Source: an uncultured archaeon
GTDB lineage: Archaea; Iainarchaeota; Iainarchaeia; Iainarchaeales; CSSED10-239
Assembly (NCBI GenBank): GCA_964496765.1
Contig: CAZCAP010000017.1
Location: 1-9,550, forward strand
DNA length: 9,550 nucleotides
Direction: 5' to 3'
In this document: positions 1-9,550 of the stretch, piece by piece
Layout of the letters: every line of letters begins with the position of its first letter
Numbering within the stretch: the stretch's first letter is position 1
Notes under the pieces: generated by a model
Told to the model about the DNA's origin: nothing
The model's input: only the letters and a program-made list of their open reading frames with translations
The model's database searches: none
Position numbers and translations under genes: made by a program

Positions 1-70
1 TATAAACAGCAACAAGTATTCCCACAACAAAACAAAGAAGAACAACAACTGCTAACGTATTAAGATTCAT
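1..70 (-). CDS. 5' end of a CDS that runs off the window start; the N-terminus is hydrophobic (signal peptide or TM helix)
   Basis: Reverse complement of 1..70 starts with ATG (70..68) and reads MNLNTLAVVVLLCFVVGILVAVY with no stop before the window edge. It begins 18 nt after the stop of the upstream ORF (89..91). Only 23 codons are visible, so no family call is possible. Confidence 0.3.
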   Translation of the reverse strand, partial: MNLNTLAVVVLLCFVVGILVAVY

Positions 71-88
71 TTAATTTCTTTCCTTTTC

Positions 89-382
89 TTATTTTCTAAG
101 TTCTATCTCAAAGATATCAATTATTCTATCTGTATCTAGATCCTTTAATGAAATCCTATTATTTGCTTTTCTTACAAACATTAAATTAAAGTTAGAATAA
201 TTTGCAACTAATCTTCTTAGCCTATCATATTGCTTGAGAGTAACTTCTTTTTTATGCCTATGGGTTAGCTCAGTAAACACTTCATGGAATCTTTCACTTT
301 TTTCAAACAATTCTTTGTTTCTTACCTTAATTTTTTCAGTTCTGTTTCTGAAGATATCACTTAATCTCATAAGTTCTTTCAC
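89..382 (-). CDS. Small hypothetical protein (93-97 aa, charged, probably helical), immediately downstream of alaS
   Basis: ORF on the same strand as alaS. The GTG at 382 lies 4 nt after the alaS stop. A more likely start is the ATG at 370, which is preceded by AGGTGA (SD-like) 8 nt upstream and gives MRLSDIFRNR.... I recognise no family motif. Confidence 0.55.
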   Translation of the reverse strand: MKELMRLSDIFRNRTEKIKVRNKELFEKSERFHEVFTELTHRHKKEVTLKQYDRLRRLVANYSNFNLMFVRKANNRISLKDLDTDRIIDIFEIELRK

Positions 383-386
383 CTAC

Positions 387-3080
387 TTAATTAAACTTTC
401 CTTGGAAGAGAGGATCTCCTCCGCCTTTTATTTGTTTACCAAGTTTCTTTTCAAGTTCCTTCTTTATTCCATCTATTGATTCCTTTGATGAAGGGCCTTT
501 CCAAATGAAAACATTTCCATTATTATTGTATATTGCAATAATCTTATCCTTTGATTTTTCAGTTGCCTGAACCTGTTTGAATACTTTTAGTATTTCTGCG
601 ATATCTAGATTAAATTTAGCAATAACTGTTTTATCATGGGTATTAACAATATTATCTAACTCATATTCAGCTATTCTATGCTTTAGAGAATCAATTTCTT
701 TTTTTTGTTCTTTCCATTCTTTAAAAAAGTTCCCTAACGTTTTTGAAAGTTCGCTTTTATTAACACATAAAACATCAGATGAATTTTCTAAATGCTTTTC
801 TTGTTCTCTAATATATTCAAGTGCTGCTTTCTGGGTTGTGTAAAATATTCTTTCAATTCCATCCTGAACACTTGTTCTTTTAATTATTTTAAAAATACCA
901 ATGTCCTTTATTTCATTTAAATGAAGCCCAGCACATGCCTGAACATCTATGTTTGGTATTTCAATTATTCTTAAAAGGTTCCCGGGAATTGCTCCACCTT
1001 GGTAAAGCCTGAAACCATATCTTTTTTCTGCTTCATCCTTTGCTAATTCAAAGATGTTTACTTTGCTTCCATCTAAAATCCATTCATTAACCTGATCTTC
1101 AATTAAATCAAGCTCTGCTTTTGTGATTGGTTTGTAGTGTGTGATGTCCAAATGAGATTCTAGAACATCCTTGCTTGCTCCAGCCTGCCATATATGCTGA
1201 CCAAGTATCTTCTTAGCAGCAGCATTTAGAAGATGTGCTCCTGTGTGCATGCATCTTAATTGCTTCTGACGTAGATCATCAACTAAACAAATTATTGATT
1301 GTCCAAGATTTATTATTTTCTTTGGATTATCTAGGAAGTGAAGAATCTTTCCTTCATAATTATAAACCTCTGTTACTTTGTGTGCACCATTTATTGTTCC
1401 ACAATCATAGGTTTGTCCTCCACCTTCTGGATAAAACACTGTTTTATCCAAGATAATAAATTTTTCTGATGCATAGAGAACCCTTGATGTGCATTCAGTT
1501 TTATTTTCATAATATAATTTTTTTGTGTTTGGAAGAGCTTTAATTATTTCTTTGTTTTCTTTTTCAAGAAGCTTCTGGATAATACTAACATCCTTTATTG
1601 CTTTTCCAGTTAAATTACTTTCTGCAATTGCCCCAAAATAATCTGCAGGAAGTTCTATCTTCTTATTCAACTTTTGTGCAGCTTCTTCAATCTGTTCTTT
1701 AGTTATTCCATCGCTCTTGTACATTGTTACAAAGTCCTTTGTATCAAGCTTTCTTCCTGATGAAAGAATACTTGCAAGCTTGCTTACTGCTTTATCTTTA
1801 TTTTGTAAATATTTCTTTTTTTCTTCGTCAAGCACATCACAGGCAGTATTAAATCCTCTTGATAGGCTAGGATCAAAATCCTTCAACGAATGAACATGTT
1901 CTTCAAATATCTTATTAAAATCTAGTTTGAAATTATGTGTTTGATCAATATCAAACAATCTTCTTGCTAGGATTCTTAGATTATATCCTCCACCAGAATT
2001 ACTTGGAAGAAGGCCATCAGTCCCTGTGTAAAGAAGAGTTTTTGTATGATCACAAACTGCATAGAGAGCATGAACTGGATCTAATTTCTTGAAGAGTTCA
2101 TCTTTGGAGTGTCCAAGTTTCTTTGCAATAGTTTCCTGAACTTTTTTAAGATCACTAACCTCATCTGCATTTAATTCTCCAGATAATCTATAAAAATCAG
2201 TTAATAGTTTATCATCAAACTTTACTCCAGTATGCTTTTTTAAATATTTTAAAACATCATCAAATGTAATATCATAGCTTGTTGGAGTTCCATTTGTGTA
2301 CCAAGCAAGTCTTTCAAACCCTGCCCCCATATCAATAACAGGTTTCTTTAATTGCTCGTACTTTCCTTTACCCATATCCTGATATTGCATGAAAACACAA
2401 TTACCTAGCTCAACACCATTAGCAAAATATTCCATACATGGTCCAAAGTTTCCTCCACCTTCCCAAACATCCTCAAAAAAAACAAGATCATCTTCCTTAA
2501 CTCCAATAACCTTAGTTAAATATTCATGATCTAGAGAAATAGCTTCTTCTTTCCAGTAGGGTTTCTTTGGATCACTATTGAATGCATGTTGACCAAACAT
2601 AACAAAGGTTGTATAGTGTGTTCCTGTAACCCCTACATTTGAGAGATCTCCAAACCTAATGGAGGTTTGTGGAACAATAAGTGGATCTGCTGGTGGTTTA
2701 ACCTCACCATTAACAACATATGGTTGGAAATCTATAATTGATGCATTTGTAAAATATAAATCATTTCTCCATCTAGGAATAACAGGATATCTTTTAATTG
2801 ATTCATGTCCATTCTTTTTAAAGAATTTTTCAATTTCTTTCCAGGTTTCTTGATATGTATATCCTTTTGTTTTATGTCCAATGAAATCACGAGATTGACA
2901 ACTAGATTCAGCACAATATTCTCTATTTGTGTTTGTCCAAAAAGCTCTTTTACATTTCTTACAAATCTTTCTTTCATAACCTAAATTAGTAAGCGCTTTA
3001 ATCTTATAATGATCCTGCCAGTTCTTTTCAAACATTGGTCTAACTTGTTTTTTAAGTTCAGTTTCAGCCATAAACATCAA
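387..3080 (-). CDS. alaS: Alanine--tRNA ligase, archaeal type
   Basis: 897-aa ORF. The N-terminus carries the archaeal-type Cys-rich element (GYERKICKKCKRAFWT...YCAESSCQ). The editing domain has HxxxH (MHTGAHLL) and CxxxH (CAGLHL) zinc motifs. The C-terminus has a DHHA1-like GGG motif (IKGGGDPLFQG). The start is ambiguous: TTG 3080, ATG 3077 or ATG 3071. TATA-like boxes lie very close upstream, so the leader may be short or absent. Confidence 0.95.
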   Translation of the reverse strand: MMFMAETELKKQVRPMFEKNWQDHYKIKALTNLGYERKICKKCKRAFWTNTNREYCAESSCQSRDFIGHKTKGYTYQETWKEIEKFFKKNGHESIKRYPVIPRWRNDLYFTNASIIDFQPYVVNGEVKPPADPLIVPQTSIRFGDLSNVGVTGTHYTTFVMFGQHAFNSDPKKPYWKEEAISLDHEYLTKVIGVKEDDLVFFEDVWEGGGNFGPCMEYFANGVELGNCVFMQYQDMGKGKYEQLKKPVIDMGAGFERLAWYTNGTPTSYDITFDDVLKYLKKHTGVKFDDKLLTDFYRLSGELNADEVSDLKKVQETIAKKLGHSKDELFKKLDPVHALYAVCDHTKTLLYTGTDGLLPSNSGGGYNLRILARRLFDIDQTHNFKLDFNKIFEEHVHSLKDFDPSLSRGFNTACDVLDEEKKKYLQNKDKAVSKLASILSSGRKLDTKDFVTMYKSDGITKEQIEEAAQKLNKKIELPADYFGAIAESNLTGKAIKDVSIIQKLLEKENKEIIKALPNTKKLYYENKTECTSRVLYASEKFIILDKTVFYPEGGGQTYDCGTINGAHKVTEVYNYEGKILHFLDNPKKIINLGQSIICLVDDLRQKQLRCMHTGAHLLNAAAKKILGQHIWQAGASKDVLESHLDITHYKPITKAELDLIEDQVNEWILDGSKVNIFELAKDEAEKRYGFRLYQGGAIPGNLLRIIEIPNIDVQACAGLHLNEIKDIGIFKIIKRTSVQDGIERIFYTTQKAALEYIREQEKHLENSSDVLCVNKSELSKTLGNFFKEWKEQKKEIDSLKHRIAEYELDNIVNTHDKTVIAKFNLDIAEILKVFKQVQATEKSKDKIIAIYNNNGNVFIWKGPSSKESIDGIKKELEKKLGKQIKGGGDPLFQGKFN

Positions 3081-3270
3081 TACCTATAAATATACCTAAC
3101 ATATCTATAAATTATACTTAATATATAAGATAAATAAGTATTTAAAGATATATTTTAGGGTTAATTATATCTATTGGCTTTTTCTAAGCTTTCTGGCCTT
3201 AAATGAAGATATATTTATAAAACGTTCCAAATAATTAATATCTATTAAAGCATAAAATAGTGGAAATAAT

Positions 3271-3342
3271 ATGATGAAAATAAACAAATCTAATTTAGGT
3301 TCTTTTTCCATTATTGATAAGTATGCCTATTGGTATTATTAA
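3271..3342 (+). CDS. Candidate 23-aa mini-ORF MMKINKSNLGSFSIIDKYAYWYY (speculative small or precursor peptide)
   Basis: ATG at 3271, TAA at 3340..3342. A weak SD-like GTGGA (3260..3264) lies 6 nt upstream and a TATA-like box lies about 50 nt upstream. It is on the same strand as the radical-SAM gene and 112 nt upstream of it, and is followed directly by a hairpin. It is too short for any statistical support from the sequence alone. Confidence 0.25.
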   Translation: MMKINKSNLGSFSIIDKYAYWYY

Positions 3343-3378
3343 CTAAAAACTAAACTACTTTAGTTATCAAGCCAATAG
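3327..3378 (+). promoter_or_regulatory. Nested stem-loop overlapping the 3' end of the mini-ORF; possible attenuator or partial terminator
   Basis: The outer stem pairs CTATTGG (3327..3333) with CCAATAG (3372..3378). The inner stem pairs AACTAAA (3348..3354) with TTTAGTT (3359..3365) around the loop CTAC. AACTAAA is also directly duplicated at 3341..3347. A T-run (CTTTTTAATTT, about 3390..3400) follows. The stems are short and AT-rich, so predicted stability is modest. Confidence 0.3.
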
Positions 3379-3454
3379 ATTTTAATAGTTCTTTTTAATT
3401 TAAGCACATTTTGATTTCTAAAGTAGTATTTTAAAAAACAGGAGGAATCAAAAT

Positions 3455-4102
3455 ATGAACAAAAGTATATTACGAGGATTTCCAGAGGATATGGTGAAAG
3501 ACAATAACCCTATCTTCTTTGGAATACATTTAAAGCCAATATGTAACTTTAAATGCAAAAAGTGTTTCATAGGAGAAATGAACAACCTAAGAATACAACA
3601 AGATCTTAATTTAAAAGAAATCAAACAAATAATACTATCCGCAAAGAATAATGGGTTTAAAGTATTAGGAATTACAGGAGCTGGAGAACCAACACTTGAT
3701 AAAAGAATAAAAGCAATTGTTTCTCTTGCACATAAGAATGGATTAATTACTCACATTCCCACAAATTCATCTTTATTAAGTGAAGAACTTCTACAGTTCT
3801 TTAAAGCCAAAGATGTAACTTTAATTTTAAGTCTTGATACAATAGAGAAAGATAAGTTTATTGAGCTAAGTGGAACTAACGAAAGTGTATTCAAAACAGT
3901 TATAAAAAACATTACTCTTGCTCAAAAAGTATTCAAAGACACTATGATTGTAAAAAATAATAAAAACACACATAGAATTGCAATACACATGACTGTTAGT
4001 GATGAAAATCAAAATGAAATAAATGCAATCAAACAAATAGCAACTAAAGACACTTTATTTAGTATTTCATCCTATCGCTGGCAAGGAATTAGCTACTTCT
4101 GA
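3455..4102 (+). CDS. Radical SAM enzyme, N-terminal and core part, truncated by an apparent frameshift
   Basis: CX3CX2C cluster motif CNFKCKKC (C30/C34/C37, 3542..3565). GGE-type SAM motif GITGAGEPTL. TNG-like PTNSSLL. ILSLDT strand. Strong SD before ATG 3455. The last 12 or so residues (SISSYRWQGISYF) look non-homologous, whereas the +1 frame continues with a plausible radical-SAM strand. Confidence 0.85.
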   Translation: MNKSILRGFPEDMVKDNNPIFFGIHLKPICNFKCKKCFIGEMNNLRIQQDLNLKEIKQIILSAKNNGFKVLGITGAGEPTLDKRIKAIVSLAHKNGLITHIPTNSSLLSEELLQFFKAKDVTLILSLDTIEKDKFIELSGTNESVFKTVIKNITLAQKVFKDTMIVKNNKNTHRIAIHMTVSDENQNEINAIKQIATKDTLFSISSYRWQGISYF

Positions 4103-4130
4103 TGAAATTACAGAAAAACACATAGTTGAA

Positions 4131-5189
4131 GTGTTTGATCCACTAACCAAAAGAAACATTTGTGGTTTTTTTAGATTCGGAATAGATATTAATTTTGATG
4201 GACAATTATTACTAGACGCCCATGCCATAAGAACATCAAAAGTATTACCTAACATTAGAAGTTTCAATTTAAATATTAAAAAAGCTTTTGATTTTGCAAA
4301 ACCAATCAAAATTAATTTCATTAAAAAACACATGGATGGTTTTTGTCCAGTTAGGTCAAATAATATAGATAACTGGATTAAAGATAAGGCTATGAAAATG
4401 GATATTAAAAAAAATATTCAAAAAGGTAAACCCCTACTTAAATTTTCATATGTTAATAAGGGTGCAAAAAAATTCTTGAAAGTATTAAATAGTAAAGAAT
4501 ATTACACCACAAAAAATGAATTGAAGATAATCACTAAAGAGGAAAAAGAATTACAATCGTTTCTCAAAAAAAATATTGTTGTTCTGGGAGTTGGAAATGG
4601 AGATAAGATCAAAAAATTAATTAATGCACCTAGCAAAAATGTGACTTTAGTAGACATTAGTGAAGATCTTATGAAAATTGCAAAAAGTAAAATTCAAAAA
4701 TCAGATTTAACAACTATAATTGATTCTTTTGAAAATATTGATGTTTCCAAATTTCAAAATACAACATTTATCATACTCGGAGGAACTTTATTTAATAATG
4801 ATAATTGGATAGATTTTATTAATAGATTAAAACAAAAATCTATTAATTCAAATTTAATTATAGGTGTAGAATTATTAAATGGAATTTCTATAGAGGACAT
4901 AATAAGACAGTACAACAATGAAACAGGATTTGAATTCATATTTCAACCATTAAAAATAATCAGGATCAAAAGGAACTCTGGAAAGATAAAAGTTAACTTC
5001 AATATTTTAAAAGATAGAATTGAAGAATGGTTTATTCCAAACAAACCAATGTTCAATAAAAAGAAAATATTACTATCAATATCTATTAAAATAAGCGAAG
5101 AAAGATTTATTAAAAAAATTAATAAAAAAAATATTGAATTTAATTTTAAGGAAGGTGATAATCATATAATTGGAATTAAATTAAACTAA
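4131..5189 (+). CDS. Continuation of the radical-SAM protein (C-terminal barrel strand plus a Cys-poor SPASM/twitch-like segment) fused to an EgtD-type (Methyltransf_33) SAM-dependent N-alpha-methyltransferase domain
   Basis: This frame is open from 4047 (KTLYLVFHPIAGKELATSDEI...), and there is no SD before the nominal GTG at 4131. From about residue 100 it resembles the EgtD family as I recall it. KFSYVNKGAKKFLKVLNSKEYYTTKNELKII resembles the WFYD..GS.LF..I....EYY.TR.E..IL region. VVLGVGNGDK (4587..4601) resembles LVELGSGTSEK. ILGGTLFNN resembles FLGSTIGNL. LIIGVELL and RQYNNETG resemble LLLGTDL and RAYDDAAG. Confidence 0.8.
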   Translation: MFDPLTKRNICGFFRFGIDINFDGQLLLDAHAIRTSKVLPNIRSFNLNIKKAFDFAKPIKINFIKKHMDGFCPVRSNNIDNWIKDKAMKMDIKKNIQKGKPLLKFSYVNKGAKKFLKVLNSKEYYTTKNELKIITKEEKELQSFLKKNIVVLGVGNGDKIKKLINAPSKNVTLVDISEDLMKIAKSKIQKSDLTTIIDSFENIDVSKFQNTTFIILGGTLFNNDNWIDFINRLKQKSINSNLIIGVELLNGISIEDIIRQYNNETGFEFIFQPLKIIRIKRNSGKIKVNFNILKDRIEEWFIPNKPMFNKKKILLSISIKISEERFIKKINKKNIEFNFKEGDNHIIGIKLN

Positions 5190-5205
5190 AATTGAGGAAA
5201 GATGT

Positions 5206-6543
5206 TTATCTTACAACATCTTTCACTTTATTTATATCCACAAGAGCTTCTTCTCCACTCTTCATGTTCTTGATCTTTATCTTGTTCTGCTTAACTTCAT
5301 CTTCACCTAGAAGACCAACAAATGGAATTCCTGATTTATTTGCAAAATCCATGTTCTTTCCAATTGCTCTTCCTAAGAGATCCATCATTGTCTTTATTCC
5401 TTGATTTCTTAGTATCTGTGTTATTTCAATTGCTTGCTTCTCTGTCTTGATTGGAATAATATAAAGATCTGCTGTTGTTTCCTTCTCCATTCCATCTCTA
5501 GCTTTAATTATCTCCATAATTGGCTCAAGACCAAATGCAACCCCAGTTGCTGGATAATTTCTATTCTCATCCTTAAGATATTTACCTATCATCTTATCCC
5601 ATCTTCCACCACCAGCAATTGAAACTGAAAGAATGGACTCATCTTTTAAGAAAACCTCAAAGATTGGACCTGTATAATACCCTAATCCTCTAGCAAGGGA
5701 TGGAAGGAAAACATAATCTGTGTTAAATTCAGAAAGATAATTAAAAAGTTCTTGTAATTCTTTTACTCCATCAGTTTCTCCAATTATTTTTTGTATATTG
5801 CTTAGCTTTCCTTGGTTATCTCCTTCAACAAGAAGGATATCTAGAATCTTAGTTATCTTATCTTGAGATATTTCTTTTTCAAGAAGTTCTTTAGTTACTC
5901 CTTCTCTTCCAACCTTCTTTAACTTATCAATTGTAATAATTGTTGTTGTTTGATAATCTTCTGGAATTTCTACAAAATTTAAAATATCTGCAAGAAGCTT
6001 TCTTGAAGACATCTCTATGTTTACATCAAGCTTAAGTTCTTTGAATACATCTGAGATAAGAGCAAGTATTTCTGCATCAGTTATCATTCCACTGGCTCCA
6101 ACTGTGTCAACATCACACTGGTAGAACTCCCTATATCTCCCTGCTTTGATTGGACCATCACGAAAAACAGGGCCTATCTGATATCTTTTGAATGGCAATC
6201 TTGTTTGAGGGTTCATTCCTATGTATCTAGCTAGTGCAAATGTAAACTCATATCTTAAACCTAAATCTCTATCCCCTTGATCTTTAAATCTATAAATCTC
6301 AGAGATAGCATCAGACGCTTCTCCAGCTCCAAACTTAGCTTCTAAAATATCTAATCTTTCAACTGTTGGAGTTTCAAGAGGAGAAAATGCATATATTTCA
6401 AAAATATTTTTTATTTTTGATATAACAGAATCTCTAAGTATTTTTTCAGCAGGAGAGAAATCTCTAAATCCTTTTGCTAAATCTAATTCAAAATTATCAT
6501 TCATTTCACATACACCTTTTTTATTATTATATTTAATACACAA
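5206..6543 (-). CDS. hisS: Histidine--tRNA ligase (class II, eukaryote/archaeal-type motifs)
   Basis: HisA-like motif LRYEFTFALARY. Motif 2 is FRDGPIKAGRYREFYQCDVDTVG. HisB motif is AGGGRWD. The C-terminal anticodon-binding domain is present. The likely true start is ATG 6504 (MNDNFELDLAKGFRDF), preceded by AGGTG. The ORF-track start at 6543 adds 13 atypical residues. Motif 3 reads GVAFGLEP rather than the expected G.G.ER (see findings). Confidence 0.9.
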   Translation of the reverse strand: MCIKYNNKKGVCEMNDNFELDLAKGFRDFSPAEKILRDSVISKIKNIFEIYAFSPLETPTVERLDILEAKFGAGEASDAISEIYRFKDQGDRDLGLRYEFTFALARYIGMNPQTRLPFKRYQIGPVFRDGPIKAGRYREFYQCDVDTVGASGMITDAEILALISDVFKELKLDVNIEMSSRKLLADILNFVEIPEDYQTTTIITIDKLKKVGREGVTKELLEKEISQDKITKILDILLVEGDNQGKLSNIQKIIGETDGVKELQELFNYLSEFNTDYVFLPSLARGLGYYTGPIFEVFLKDESILSVSIAGGGRWDKMIGKYLKDENRNYPATGVAFGLEPIMEIIKARDGMEKETTADLYIIPIKTEKQAIEITQILRNQGIKTMMDLLGRAIGKNMDFANKSGIPFVGLLGEDEVKQNKIKIKNMKSGEEALVDINKVKDVVR

Positions 6544-6548
6544 ACATT

Positions 6549-7334
6549 TTAAAGCTTATATAATTCTTTTCTTCTATCTCCCATTAGGTTATTATACTTA
6601 TTATAATTTTTATTTCTTGCTTTTTTAACATCTATGGTAACCATTTGGATATCTTCTCGATTATTACCTTTAGCAAGCACTTTCATTCTTGGATCTACAA
6701 TTTCTGATTCTCCACAAAAATCAATATTTCTTTCTTTACCAACTTTATTAACAGTTATAGTAAATATCCCATTTTCTAAAGATCTACTTCTCATACAGGT
6801 CATAACTTTTTTTGGTTTTGTTTTCAAACAACAGGGGCAACAAATAATATCCACTCCTTTCAAAGCTAAAGTTCTAACTATTTCTGGGAACATATAATCA
6901 AAACAAATTATTAATCCAATATTTCCAATAGCTGTCTTAAAAACTTTATAATTGGTTTCTCCTTTATTAAATGTGTTTTTTTCTTTATAAAATAAATGTG
7001 TTTTTTGGTATTTTCCAATATATCCTTTTGGACCAACTAATACACAGCTATTATATAATTTATTTTTTTTAATTTCGGGCAACCCACAAACAATGTACAC
7101 ATTATTATTTTTACAAATGTCTTTTATTTTTTGTACACTTTTACCAGATGGTATTTCTTCCGAATATTTTTTCAGTTCATTTTTATTTTTAAATAGATAT
7201 CCAGTTGTATATAATTCAGGAAGAACTAATAAATTTATTTTTTTATTTTTTAAATTATCATTAATTCTTTCCAAATTATAATTAACATCTCCAAATTTCG
7301 ATTTAAATTGAAAGAAACCAATATTTATCTTCAT
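6549..7334 (-). CDS. Carbon-nitrogen hydrolase (nitrilase superfamily amidase), substrate unknown
   Basis: 261 aa with an intact Glu-Lys-Cys triad in canonical contexts: LVLPELYTTGY (E40), GKYQKTHLF (K111), GLIICFDYMFPE (C144). Its ATG overlaps the HAL stop (ATGA, 7331..7334). Its stop lies 5 nt before the hisS ORF. Confidence 0.85.
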   Translation of the reverse strand: MKINIGFFQFKSKFGDVNYNLERINDNLKNKKINLLVLPELYTTGYLFKNKNELKKYSEEIPSGKSVQKIKDICKNNNVYIVCGLPEIKKNKLYNSCVLVGPKGYIGKYQKTHLFYKEKNTFNKGETNYKVFKTAIGNIGLIICFDYMFPEIVRTLALKGVDIICCPCCLKTKPKKVMTCMRSRSLENGIFTITVNKVGKERNIDFCGESEIVDPRMKVLAKGNNREDIQMVTIDVKKARNKNYNKYNNLMGDRRKELYKL

Positions 7335-8854
7335 TTAAAAATCACTTTTTCTTCTAATTTATTTAATAATTCCTCATTTCTTATAATATCTATAACTTTG
7401 TCTATATCTTTATAAAAAATCCTGTCCTTATCTATAAATTTTGATATTTTTCTTATTTCTTCATAAATTATTTCTGATCCTACACCAGCTTTTAATGGCC
7501 TCTTAAAATCCAAAGCTTGACAACCACATAATAATTCAATGGCTATAATTGCTTGTGTATTTTTAATAATTTCTCTAAGCTTTCTAGAAGCATTTGTTGC
7601 CATTGACACGTGGTCTTCCTGATCTCCAGATACAGAAATACTATCAATGGTTGCAGGTGTTGCAAGTATTTTGTTTTCATTAATTAATCCTGCTTGTGTA
7701 TATTGTGCAATCATTAATCCAGAATCTAATCCTTCTGATTTTATTAAGAAAGCTGGTAATGATCCATTAAGATTTGGATTAAGTAGTCTATTGGTTCTTC
7801 TTTCACTTAAATTACCAAGATCCGTAATAGCTATAGATAATAAATCCATTACTAAACCAACTGGTTCACCGTGAAAATTACCACCTGCCAAATATGTTTC
7901 AGATTCTGTAATAAACACAGGATTATCCACAACAGAATTTATTTCTATTAGGATTTGTTTTTTAGTATACTCTAAAGCATCCTTAAAAGCTCCTGTAACC
8001 TGAGGAGTACATCTTAATGAATAGCAAGATTGTGTTTCTGTTTTCTTTTGTGCAAGTATTTCTGAATCTTTTATTAAATTTAGTAAATTTTCTGCAACAT
8101 CTCTCTGTCCTTTATATGGTCTTAAATCCATTAATCTTTTATCAAAGGCCATAGTAACTGTATTTAACACATCAATTGTTAATGCACCAGAGGCTTGTGA
8201 TAATTTAATTAATCTTTCTGTATCATAAATATTTAAACAAGCATAGGCAGACATAAACTGTGTTCCATTAAATAATGCTAACCCTTCTCTAGGCATTAAT
8301 CTTATGGGTTCTATATTTTCTTTTTTAAATACTTCTTTTGTTTCTAATCTTTCACCTTTATATATAACTTCACCTTCTCCAATTATAGGTAACATTGCTT
8401 GACTTAGAGGCGCTAGATCTCCTGATGTCCCCACAGATCCTTTCTCGTAAATTACAGGAATAATGTTTTTATTTAGTAATTCAACAATTCTATTGATTAT
8501 TATAAGCCTAACACCAGAATAACCTTTTACTAATGTATTTAATCTTAAAAGAACTGCTGCTCTTGCAATTTCTAATGGTGCGGGATTACCAGTTCCTGCT
8601 GCGTGTGCTCTTAGCATTCTTTCAGATAATTCTCCACCAAGATCATTTGACAATATACAATTTCCAAAACCTCCAATTCCAGTGTTTACACCATACATTA
8701 TTTCTCCTTTATCTAAGAGGCCTAATAACATATTCCAATTATCTTCCACTTTTTTTTTATTTACGTTAGGTACTTTTATCATAGCTCCAAATCTACCTAC
8801 ATTAACAACATCTTCTATACTTAGGTTGTTTCCATCAACAATAACTTCTCTCAT
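7331..8854 (-). CDS. hutH: Histidine ammonia-lyase (MIO-dependent aromatic amino-acid lyase family)
   Basis: 507 aa. MIO-forming segment GSVGTSGDLAPLSQ (Thr-Ser-Gly at 143-145). HAL-type residues are retained: Y54 (YGVNTG), H83 (RAHAAG), N196 (NGTQF), Q/Y/R in QSCYSLRCTPQV, F in NFHGEPV, and E in DQEDHVSMA. An SD-like GGAG lies upstream of ATG 8854. Confidence 0.9.
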   Translation of the reverse strand: MREVIVDGNNLSIEDVVNVGRFGAMIKVPNVNKKKVEDNWNMLLGLLDKGEIMYGVNTGIGGFGNCILSNDLGGELSERMLRAHAAGTGNPAPLEIARAAVLLRLNTLVKGYSGVRLIIINRIVELLNKNIIPVIYEKGSVGTSGDLAPLSQAMLPIIGEGEVIYKGERLETKEVFKKENIEPIRLMPREGLALFNGTQFMSAYACLNIYDTERLIKLSQASGALTIDVLNTVTMAFDKRLMDLRPYKGQRDVAENLLNLIKDSEILAQKKTETQSCYSLRCTPQVTGAFKDALEYTKKQILIEINSVVDNPVFITESETYLAGGNFHGEPVGLVMDLLSIAITDLGNLSERRTNRLLNPNLNGSLPAFLIKSEGLDSGLMIAQYTQAGLINENKILATPATIDSISVSGDQEDHVSMATNASRKLREIIKNTQAIIAIELLCGCQALDFKRPLKAGVGSEIIYEEIRKISKFIDKDRIFYKDIDKVIDIIRNEELLNKLEEKVIFK

Positions 8855-8891
8855 TTTTAATCATCTCCACAAATAATTTTGTAATTTTAAG

Positions 8892-8964
8892 GGTCCGAAC
8901 CGGGATTCGAACCCGGGTCCTAAGATCCACAGTCTTAGATGCTAACCACTACACAACTCGGACC
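8892..8964 (-). tRNA. tRNA-His (anticodon GUG) with genomically encoded G-1 pairing with C73; no encoded CCA
   Basis: Minus-strand sequence: GGTCCGAGTTGTGTAGTGGTTAGCATCTAAGACTGTGGATCTTAGGACCCGGGTTCGAATCCCGGTTCGGACC. Acceptor GTCCGAG/TTCGGAC plus the extra G-1:C73 pair. Anticodon stem TAAGA/TCTTA with loop CTGTGGA (GTG at 34-36). T-arm CCGGG-TTCGAAT-CCCGG. Folded by hand. Confidence 0.9.
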
Positions 8965-8976
8965 ATTAACTACTAT

Positions 8977-9238
8977 TCAGTTTGTTATTACCACCCTATC
9001 ATTATCTACTCTGATAGATACGTTATCAAAGAAACCTAATGACTTTCTAACAGAAGATGGTATTGTTATTCTATTCTTGGAATCAACAGCGATGGGCTAA
9101 TCTATAATTAGTTGATATAATTAATTTAGAATTAATTAAATCGAAATCGTAACTTAAACTAGAGTTATCTTTAAACAAGTTAGTTATTTGTTTTGATAAT
9201 CTAATTCTTCCCTTATCATCAATTTTTGTTTTTTCCAT
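8977..9238 (-). pseudogene. Tandem SpoVT/AbrB-domain (swapped-hairpin) DNA-binding protein, interrupted by an apparent +1 frameshift
   Basis: Part 1 (9083..9238) reads MEKTKIDDKGRIRLSKQITNLF...LIISTNYRLAHRC*, preceded by AGGAGTGA and a TATA-like box. Part 2 is in the +1 frame (8977..9096) and reads PIAVDSKNRITIPSSVRKSLGFFDNVSIRVDNDRVVITN*. Both halves carry the AbrB-type D.KGRI.IP..IR signature. Removing one C from the CCC run (9094..9096) would give one continuous ORF of about 87 aa. Confidence 0.6.
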
Positions 9239-9344
9239 AAATTAAACTCACTCCTTTTTATTGGAATTATAAATAATTTATGAAACAAAGGTTTTAAAAG
9301 AATTGGTGGGCAAAAGCTGTCCAAGAAATATAACATACGTTTGG

Positions 9345-9533
9345 CTAAATCTCATGAAAATTCATTTTATATAATTCAGGAAGATATAAATCAATTGCTT
9401 CTGTAATATTTTGCATTGCTTCTTCTTTTGAGTCACCCTGTGATATACACCCAGGTAATTGAGGAACATAAACAGTATATCCACCTTCTAATTGCTTTTC
9501 AAAAATCACATCTATTTTCATAACATCACACAT
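9345..9533 (-). CDS. HicB-like / UPF0150 family small protein (antitoxin-like fold)
   Basis: KIDVIFEKQLEGGYTVYVPQLPGCISQGDSKEEAMQNITEAIDLYL matches the HicB N-terminal signature (E...GGY.A.VP.LPGC.SQG.T.EEA..NI.EAI.L.L). The likely start is ATG 9521 (MKIDV...). There is no C-terminal DNA-binding extension. Confidence 0.75.
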   Translation of the reverse strand: MCDVMKIDVIFEKQLEGGYTVYVPQLPGCISQGDSKEEAMQNITEAIDLYLPELYKMNFHEI

Positions 9534-9550
9534 ATAATAGGTATAGATAG

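Follow-up and report, generated by a model that had tools for sequence, protein, structure and literature searches.

What is a gene for a predicted histidine-degrading enzyme doing between the tRNA for histidine and the enzyme that charges it? The question is raised by a 9,550-nt stretch of DNA from an uncultured archaeon of the Iainarchaeota (GenBank assembly GCA_964496765.1, contig CAZCAP010000017.1, positions 1 to 9,550), analysed here at its full length as the window, in which a tRNA-His gene and the genes for a histidine ammonia-lyase (HAL), a nitrilase-superfamily amidase and histidyl-tRNA synthetase (HisRS, encoded by hisS) lie head-to-tail on the minus strand. A sequence-only reading of the window had picked out these four genes, and all of them were confirmed in that arrangement: tRNA-His(GUG) at 8891–8963, or 8964 with its encoded G-1 (ARAGORN; Rfam RF00005, 55.6 bits), HAL at 7331–8854 (a HutH-type 4-methylideneimidazol-5-one (MIO) enzyme of 507 aa; PF00221 and TIGR01225), the amidase, a C-N hydrolase, at 6549–7334 (PF00795, 171 bits), and a housekeeping HisRS of 432 aa at 5206–6504 (TIGR00442). 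The spacings given by that reading hold for the longest open reading frames (ORFs), with 36–37 nt between tRNA-His and HAL, a 4-nt overlap of HAL and the amidase, 5 nt between the amidase and the longest HisRS ORF and 16 nt between hisS and a convergent radical-SAM/EgtD-like gene, but the gap between the amidase and HisRS becomes 44 nt with the ATG start of hisS.

The sequence-only reading had further suggested a functional module for histidine sensing, charging, catabolism or derivatisation, rather than chance, as the reason for the co-location, and had proposed comparative synteny as the check. We therefore compared 88 loci carrying HAL homologues, 80 of them from GTDB species genomes and the rest retrieved through exact matches to the closest metagenomic homologues, over a neighbourhood of ±6 kb around HAL. 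Twelve loci constituted a clade from DPANN archaea and the candidate phyla radiation (CPR) (the window, L004, L005, L006, L069, L084, L086, L087, L089, L113, L114 and L115), and the 76 loci of other lineages (Planctomycetota, Thermoplasmatota, Thorarchaeota and others) served as the comparison set. In a neighbour-joining tree of HAL, the window joined L004, L084 and L086, then L005 and L089, then the CPR-type loci L087, L113, L114 and L115, and then L006; L069, a truncated Micrarchaeota HAL with 54% identity, was grouped with the same clade. HisRS was found within 6 kb of HAL at 9 of the 12 clade loci versus 1 of the 76 others (2 when L049 is counted), and tRNA-His stood upstream of the cluster on the same strand at 5 of the 12, whereas HutU or HutI was seen at none of the 12 clade loci versus 26 of the 76 others. 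The linkage of tRNA-His, HAL, amidase and HisRS is far commoner than chance, and its recurrence in other DPANN and CPR lineages argues that the linkage is selected, so that the suggestion of the sequence-only reading was borne out for four of its five parts, the radical-SAM/EgtD-like gene being the exception.

The order of the genes varied from locus to locus: tRNA-His, HAL, C-N hydrolase and HisRS in the window; HAL, C-N hydrolase and HisRS in L086; HAL, C-N hydrolase, a thiamine pyrophosphate (TPP) enzyme and HisRS in L004; HisRS, an 80-aa ORF, HAL, C-N hydrolase and the TPP enzyme in L084; tRNA-His, HAL, an isochorismatase-like enzyme and HisRS in L005; HAL, isochorismatase-like enzyme and HisRS in L069; and tRNA-His, an AbrB-like gene, HAL, isochorismatase, TPP enzyme, HisRS and IleRS in L089. 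The CPR loci read TrpR-like gene, tRNA-His, HisRS, a 324-aa protein, an M20 enzyme, HAL, an IS110 transposase and C-N hydrolase (L087), TrpR-like gene, tRNA-His, a 349-aa protein, M20, HAL and C-N hydrolase (L113), and TrpR-like gene, a 63-aa ORF, HAL, a 59-aa ORF and HisRS (L115). Since the orders differ, the clade loci do not preserve one frozen ancestral arrangement. The partner of HAL was always a C-N amidohydrolase, taken from either of two non-homologous families (nitrilase or isochorismatase), with the M20 enzyme as an extra in CPR, and the genes of HAL and the hydrolase overlapped or abutted in the window, L004, L005, L069, L084, L086, L089 and L113; in L087 the transposase separates them. 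A small gene for a putative DNA-binding protein preceded the cluster, AbrB-like in archaea and TrpR-like in CPR.

The closest relatives of the window showed what the locus looks like when the two middle genes are missing. Three groups of loci, L116/L117, L090/L091/L094 and L092/L093/L095, encode HisRS with 91%, 89% and 87% identity, respectively, in the order AbrB-like gene, tRNA-His and hisS, with spacers of 66, about 117 and about 107 nt between tRNA-His and hisS and with neither HAL nor amidase; HU, DUF1846, tRNA-Arg and AlaRS are syntenic around the locus in all three. In the alignment with L116, homology ends 6 nt (TTAAAA) past the tRNA and restarts at hisS, so that the indel spans 6505–8884 of the window (minus strand). 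HAL and the amidase are an accessory cassette of about 2.4 kb placed exactly between tRNA-His and hisS. The sequence-only reading had held that absence of the linkage from close relatives would point to a chance rearrangement; it is indeed absent there, HAL and amidase themselves being missing, yet it is present in distant lineages, and these two observations together therefore indicate a mobile accessory cassette rather than a chance rearrangement.

The cassette was probably acquired horizontally, with the pair of tRNA-His and hisS as the basal state in this lineage. By parsimony the direction of the indel would be a gain, since the window and L116 are nearest neighbours and one gain is then set against two or three losses. 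The HAL tree brings DPANN and CPR sequences together, and similarity of HAL ranks L004, L086 and L084 first, whereas that of HisRS ranks L005 first; both observations fit horizontal movement of the cassette. At the junction, the first four codons of hisS encode MNDN in the window versus MEKD in all three relatives. A chimeric hisS as a recombination scar was considered and rejected, because identity of HisRS to that of L116 is uniform and the first four codons alone differ; N-termini of HisRS from other HAL clusters did not match that of the window. We also rejected composition as a sign of recent transfer, since the window is AT-rich throughout with an even GC content of 22–35%.

The tRNA-His carries the anticodon GUG and a genome-encoded G-1 (8964) opposite C73, its CCA is not encoded, and in the alignment it is identical to the tRNA-His of L116. 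HisRS scores 350.3 bits against the cut-off of 286.75 for TIGR00442, and matches both PF13393 and PF03129, in keeping with a class II core and an anticodon-binding domain; its orthologues in L116, L090 and L092 (87–91% identical) occupy the syntenic position. It most likely starts at the ATG at 6504, because the gene call and all close homologues give 432 aa and AGGTG lies upstream, and the upstream TTG at 6543 (longest ORF 5206–6543) is improbable. Two loci from Phycisphaerae (L028, 7972–11503; L049, 40–6570) also have tRNA-His followed directly by hisS, with HAL 0.5–3.5 kb downstream, and adjacency of tRNA-His and hisS is therefore not confined to DPANN and CPR.

HAL in the window is predicted to be a histidine ammonia-lyase that deaminates L-histidine to urocanate. 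Its scores are above the hutH equivalog cut-offs (TIGR01225: 567.3 vs 539.15 bits, NF006871: 581 vs 524 bits; PF00221: 569.7 bits), and all of the active-site and selectivity residues that we take to be those of the Pseudomonas putida enzyme (Tyr53, His83, Asn195, Gln277, Tyr280, Arg283, Phe329 and Glu414) are conserved in the alignment to 1GKM/1B8F. The claim of the sequence-only reading that the histidine-selectivity position H83 is retained thus holds in the P. putida alignment, the residue being number 84 in the window protein. The X-Ser-Gly triad that forms MIO is present as Thr-Ser-Gly (GSVGTSGDLAPL). We considered whether this triad might single out a special HAL clade and rejected the idea, since the first residue is freely variable across 84 HAL loci (Thr in 28, Ser in 21, Val in 16, Ala in 11 and Cys in 8). 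As for the amidase, the Glu/Lys/Cys triad is found in the motifs LPELY, QKTHLF and IICFDY, and the closest structures in PDB are those of Pyrococcus PH0642 and of the P. abyssi nitrilase; its score is below the cut-off of the archaeal nitrilase equivalog (NF040852: 247 vs 500 bits).

The gene upstream of tRNA-His (8977–9238, minus strand) is a small SpoVT-AbrB/MraZ-like gene and a putative regulator. It is read in two frames, and the joined product matches MraZ (23.4 bits) and MazE/AbrB (20.9 bits). Its second half aligns with ORFs of 76–80 aa directly upstream of HAL in L084 and L089, and the same 51-aa ORF precedes tRNA-His in L090, L092 and L116.

What such a cluster would do can be answered only tentatively, and the reading that we prefer, at a little less than an even chance, is histidine homeostasis and ammonia supply through a truncated histidine utilization (Hut) route tied to histidine charging. 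The close packing suggests that tRNA-His, HAL, amidase and HisRS most likely form one transcription unit, which would stand under the control of the AbrB-like regulator upstream. In a reduced organism that imports histidine, the charging pair would then be co-expressed with the truncated Hut route: HAL would convert surplus histidine into urocanate and NH3, the translationally coupled amidase would free a second NH3 from an amide substrate, and urocanate would be the end product or a signal, hutU and hutI not being nearby. The net role would be homeostasis of histidine together with a nitrogen or ammonia supply linked to expression of the charging pair. Several points weigh against this reading. 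At three clade loci (L006, L113 and L114) hisS is not nearby, the 12 clade loci are not phylogenetically independent, co-transcription is judged from packing alone, and hutU/hutI or histidine biosynthesis genes may lie outside the compared neighbourhoods. The known Hut routes include no enzyme of the nitrilase or the isochorismatase family, and simple release of ammonia leaves the TPP enzyme, the M20 enzyme and the HisRS-like paralogue of other loci unexplained. Co-expression of a histidine consumer with HisRS is also counter-intuitive and needs a Michaelis constant (Km) of HAL for histidine much higher than that of HisRS, which would be assumed from general enzyme kinetics.

It is unlikely, though not negligibly so, that the cassette is merely hitch-hiking without functional coupling, having landed 3' of tRNA-His and spread by tRNA-anchored recombination with hisS already as the neighbour. 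Genes for tRNA are insertion hot spots on their 3' side, the cassette begins only 6 nt past a tRNA identical to that of L116, the differing first four codons of hisS look as if the junction were there, the pair of tRNA-His and hisS occurs with no HAL between them in L090, L092, L116 and the two Phycisphaerae loci, and in L113 tRNA-His is associated with a HAL operon lacking hisS. However, the ORF and Pfam scan of the window gave no integrase, att repeat or other trace of a mobile element, the cargo at tRNA-His always includes a histidine-specific catabolic enzyme, the linkage survives rearranged orders with hisS up- or downstream and also occurs with no tRNA-His nearby (L115), and the addition of a HisRS-like paralogue in CPR fits a histidine function better than random cargo. 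Quite unlikely, in our judgement, is a new multi-step pathway in which HAL, an amidohydrolase and, elsewhere, an acetolactate synthase (ALS)-like TPP enzyme, an M20 deacylase and the HisRS-like paralogue would make or break down a specific histidine-derived metabolite via urocanate, instead of acting as a plain valve for ammonia or overflow. Translational coupling of HAL and the hydrolase, the presence of the TPP enzyme lacking its middle domain at 3 of 8 archaeal loci and that of M20 with the HisRS-like paralogue at 2 CPR loci speak for it, but the accessory genes vary by lineage, the window holds HAL and the amidase alone, the swap of the hydrolase between non-homologous families suggests that the step is generic and not highly specific, and a link from urocanate to an amidase matches no known chemistry.

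Reversal of HAL, by which urocanate and NH3 would yield L-histidine for HisRS in an auxotroph with the amidase feeding ammonia, would account for the constant coupling of HAL to an ammonia-releasing amidase, whatever its family, and for the position of the two beside hisS and tRNA-His. MIO lyases are reversible at high ammonia, but the equilibrium of HAL strongly favours deamination, we know of no natural biosynthetic use of HAL, a urocanate transporter was not seen, and the cassette is dispensable in close relatives; we consider such salvage very unlikely. If true, it would let histidine-auxotrophic DPANN and CPR symbionts bypass the ten-step biosynthesis of histidine. The least probable of the proposals, and one to which we give hardly any weight, is the five-part module suggested by the sequence-only reading, in which the radical-SAM/EgtD-like enzyme would derivatise histidine into a hercynine- or ergothioneine-like product together with HAL, amidase, HisRS and tRNA-His. 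The methyltransferase (MT) domain of that enzyme does match PF10017 (60.8 bits vs 23, over profile positions 19–204 of 304 only), its best match in PDB is EgtD, and the gene adjoins hisS in the window, L090 and L092. Aligned to 7SCF, the domain has equivalents of Tyr39, Phe47, Tyr56, Asn166 and Tyr206, presumably the residues of EgtD that hold the substrate backbone, whereas the side-chain pocket region of Thr213, Met252 and Glu282, which we take to be specific for imidazole, is unaligned; the comparison thus speaks neither for nor against histidine as the substrate of the enzyme. The PDB match has an E-value of only 0.002, and the score for the EgtD equivalog TIGR03438 is 51.6 vs 290.9 bits. 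The gene lies on the opposite strand, is absent from all 11 other HAL clusters and from beside hisS in the closest relatives L116/L117, where Fic genes take its place, and has homologues in L096–L100 and L111 that are near neither hisS nor HAL; of other loci, only the close relatives L090 and L092 have it beside hisS. The radical-SAM/EgtD-like gene is thus a neighbour outside the conserved module, and its likeness to EgtD is at the level of the superfamily only.

This neighbour, a fusion of a radical-SAM domain with Methyltransf_33 (rSAM-MT33; 3455–5189, plus strand), raised a question of its own. Both of the domains named by the sequence-only reading are there (for the radical-SAM part, PF04055 with 55.4 bits and the CxxxCxxC motif CNFKCKKC at residues 30–37), and so is the convergent orientation towards hisS, but they are not encoded by one ORF: the radical-SAM ORF stops (3455–4102) and the rest (4041–5189) is in the +1 frame. 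Homologues are rare (25 matches in 5.8 billion proteins) and occur either as fusions (P0122 with 576 aa, P0126 and P0127) or as a pair of adjacent genes, the break falling near residue 310. Modelled from an alignment of four sequences, the structure of the fusion was of too low a quality for use (pLDDT 49.6, pTM 0.36). In L111, which represents the most distant of the frameshifted lineages, a Dph2-type diphthamide synthesis gene (3115–4119) lies 1.2 kb upstream of rSAM-MT33 on the same strand. Dph2 acts on elongation factor 2 (EF-2), one histidine of which it modifies, and this single case may be a coincidence.

The frame breaks at ...UCA UCC U AUC GCU... (4070–4076), after which the 0 frame ends at a stop 10 codons later and the +1 frame gives the other 372 codons. 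Across the site, the in-frame homologue P0122 has the protein sequence ...SISS-IAGNE..., the in-frame sequence of L090/P0122 being UCA AGU AUU GCU. The shift occurs at the same site in L092/L093 (CCC U AUC UCU, 7945–7951 in L092; protein 72–77% identical) and in L111/L112 (CCC U AUC GCA, 5982–5988 in L111; protein about 60% identical). Both halves are under purifying constraint comparable to that of the in-frame lineage (dN/dS = 0.11–0.16 for all pairs; 0.07–0.09 for HisRS), and from the shift site to the first codon that could serve as a start the protein sequence is conserved, with synonymous codon changes. Ahead of the downstream half there was no conserved start codon or Shine-Dalgarno sequence, candidate starts differing by lineage, whereas the true start of the gene has AGGAGG.

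The AbrB-like gene upstream of tRNA-His is interrupted in the same manner: a 51-codon ORF (9238–9083) is followed in the +1 frame from 9096 to the stop at 8977–8979, with the motif GCC CAU CGC at 9097–9089 of the minus strand. The site reads GCC C AUC GCU in the window and GCC C AUC followed by GCC, GCA or GUU in L090 (~13373), L092 (~12388) and L116 (8728–8742), and the second AbrB half-domain lacks a start codon. A homologue with 55% identity is again exactly 51 aa long, and a search of 1.8 billion representatives found no in-frame homologue, returning only a further ORF of 51 aa and a spurious repeat protein. The sites in the two genes share the motif NCC-YAU-CGY, and wherever CCNAUCGC occurs in the 89 kb covered for this lineage, it marks a switch of this kind. 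In the 0 frame, the sites carry codons that rank among the least used (CGC, 0–1 per ~4,500 codons; CUC likewise rare), and no significant RNA structure was detected downstream of the sites (z = −1.7 to +0.8). Judging from these sequences, programmed +1 frameshifting at a rare-codon site is somewhat the likelier explanation, as against split proteins expressed otherwise, and the predicted trans-frame peptide of rSAM-MT33 would be ...DTLFSISS-IAGKELATSDEITEK or a ...SSYAGK... variant. The sites resemble those of antizyme (UCC-UGA-U), yeast Ty1/Ty3 and bacterial prfB in the conserved NCC-N-AUC (with UCC-U as in antizyme) and in the very rare 0-frame codon that comes next (CGC, CGU or CUC), the latter recalling 'hungry-codon' sites. 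They differ in belonging to archaeal cellular genes, in the absence of a stop codon at the rSAM site and in the lack of a detected downstream RNA structure, and, unlike those systems, they are known from sequence alone. For archaeal cellular genes, a 2021 review lists −1 frameshifting (fucA1) alone as demonstrated (PMC8211752). If programmed, the shift would be, judging by that review, the first +1 case in archaeal cellular genes, and the annotation of DPANN 'pseudogenes' would change.

The remaining features of the window and some observations at the compared loci complete the picture. AlaRS (387–3080, minus strand) lies beyond the convergent rSAM-MT33 gene, and at the other end a HicB-like antitoxin ORF (9345–9533, minus strand) has no HicA partner in the window, L116 and L117 carrying HicB with HicA there. 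The window matches a 37-kb metagenomic contig (ENA ERZ27248937 k141_79407), and homologues of HisRS and HAL bear the names 'archaeon', Diapherotrites/Iainarchaeum, Woesearchaeota and Micrarchaeota, all pointing to DPANN. A tRNA-Thr(GGU) gene is found just downstream of the HAL/C-N hydrolase cluster in L004 (6244–6316), L084 (4399–4473) and L086 (4960–5032), the three archaeal loci with the HAL closest to that of the window. The ALS-like TPP enzyme of three archaeal HAL clusters (L004, 2589–3815; L084, 3164–4327; L089, 9145–10293) has 382–408 aa and lacks the central domain. In CPR, the C-terminus of the 324–349-aa protein (L087, 4837–5811; L113, 1290–2339), GGGNFTPL...IGFAVG, resembles the motif-3/histidine-binding region of HisRS; profile comparison supported the likeness to the motif-3 region (hhalign 90.8%, E = 1.2e-6), BLASTP to HisRS was not significant (E = 0.54), and searches of Pfam, NCBIfam and PDB sequences were empty. 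This protein may be a degenerate HisRS/HisZ-like paralogue. TrpR-like genes (PF01371) stand ahead of the CPR HAL/hisS clusters (L087, 3010–3303; L113, 615–947; L114, 1833–2084 and 6419–6778; L115, 6135–6428), and in L114 one of them also precedes an operon with a TrpRS/TyrRS-type synthetase; these proteins may regulate operons of aminoacyl-tRNA synthetases in CPR more generally.

Among known systems, the closest in enzymology are the Hut operons (hutH-hutU-hutI-hutG/F) of Pseudomonas, Bacillus, Klebsiella and many archaea, with which the cluster shares a genuine HutH-type MIO HAL as the first enzyme. It differs from them in that hutU, hutI or hutG is adjacent at none of the 12 clade loci (hutU/hutI at 26 of the 76 others), the partner is of the nitrilase or isochorismatase family, the genes are set between tRNA-His and hisS, and the putative regulators are AbrB-like or TrpR-like rather than HutC or HutP. 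T-box-controlled hisS and the hisZ paralogue likewise tie charging machinery to histidine metabolism in a histidine-specific manner, and the CPR loci add a HisRS-like catalytic-domain paralogue, but here the partner is catabolic, a real tRNA-His gene lies upstream, and the Rfam scan of the window returned the tRNA alone, with no T-box, riboswitch or leader in the cluster. The arginine deiminase system of Saccharibacteria is an ammonia-producing cassette acquired by episymbionts, and it is similar in being an accessory, horizontally acquired deamination module of an ultra-small symbiont that is present or absent among close relatives; the amino acid and the enzymes are different, there is no ATP-yielding step here, and the present cassette is linked to a pair of tRNA and aminoacyl-tRNA synthetase. 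As for EgtD and other Methyltransf_33 proteins, the C-terminal domain of the neighbour matches PF10017 and has the N-terminal motifs of EgtD, but it is fused to a MoaA/viperin-like radical-SAM domain, falls short of the equivalog model, leaves the substrate pocket unaligned and has no conserved link to histidine genes.

HutH has been noted in 12% of Micrarchaeota (PMC8407392). That paper mentions only the occurrence of HutH, and in the full-text literature we found no description of a cluster of HAL with hisS or with tRNA-His. What is new is the conserved embedding of HAL and an amidase in a tRNA-His/hisS unit of DPANN and CPR with no adjacent hutU or hutI, together with the frameshift motif, all of the protein families being known. 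DPANN and CPR have almost no amino-acid metabolism, and the fate of the amino acids they import is largely obscure; the cluster offers a concrete entry point to the balance that these symbionts strike between charging, nitrogen supply and perhaps urocanate signalling.

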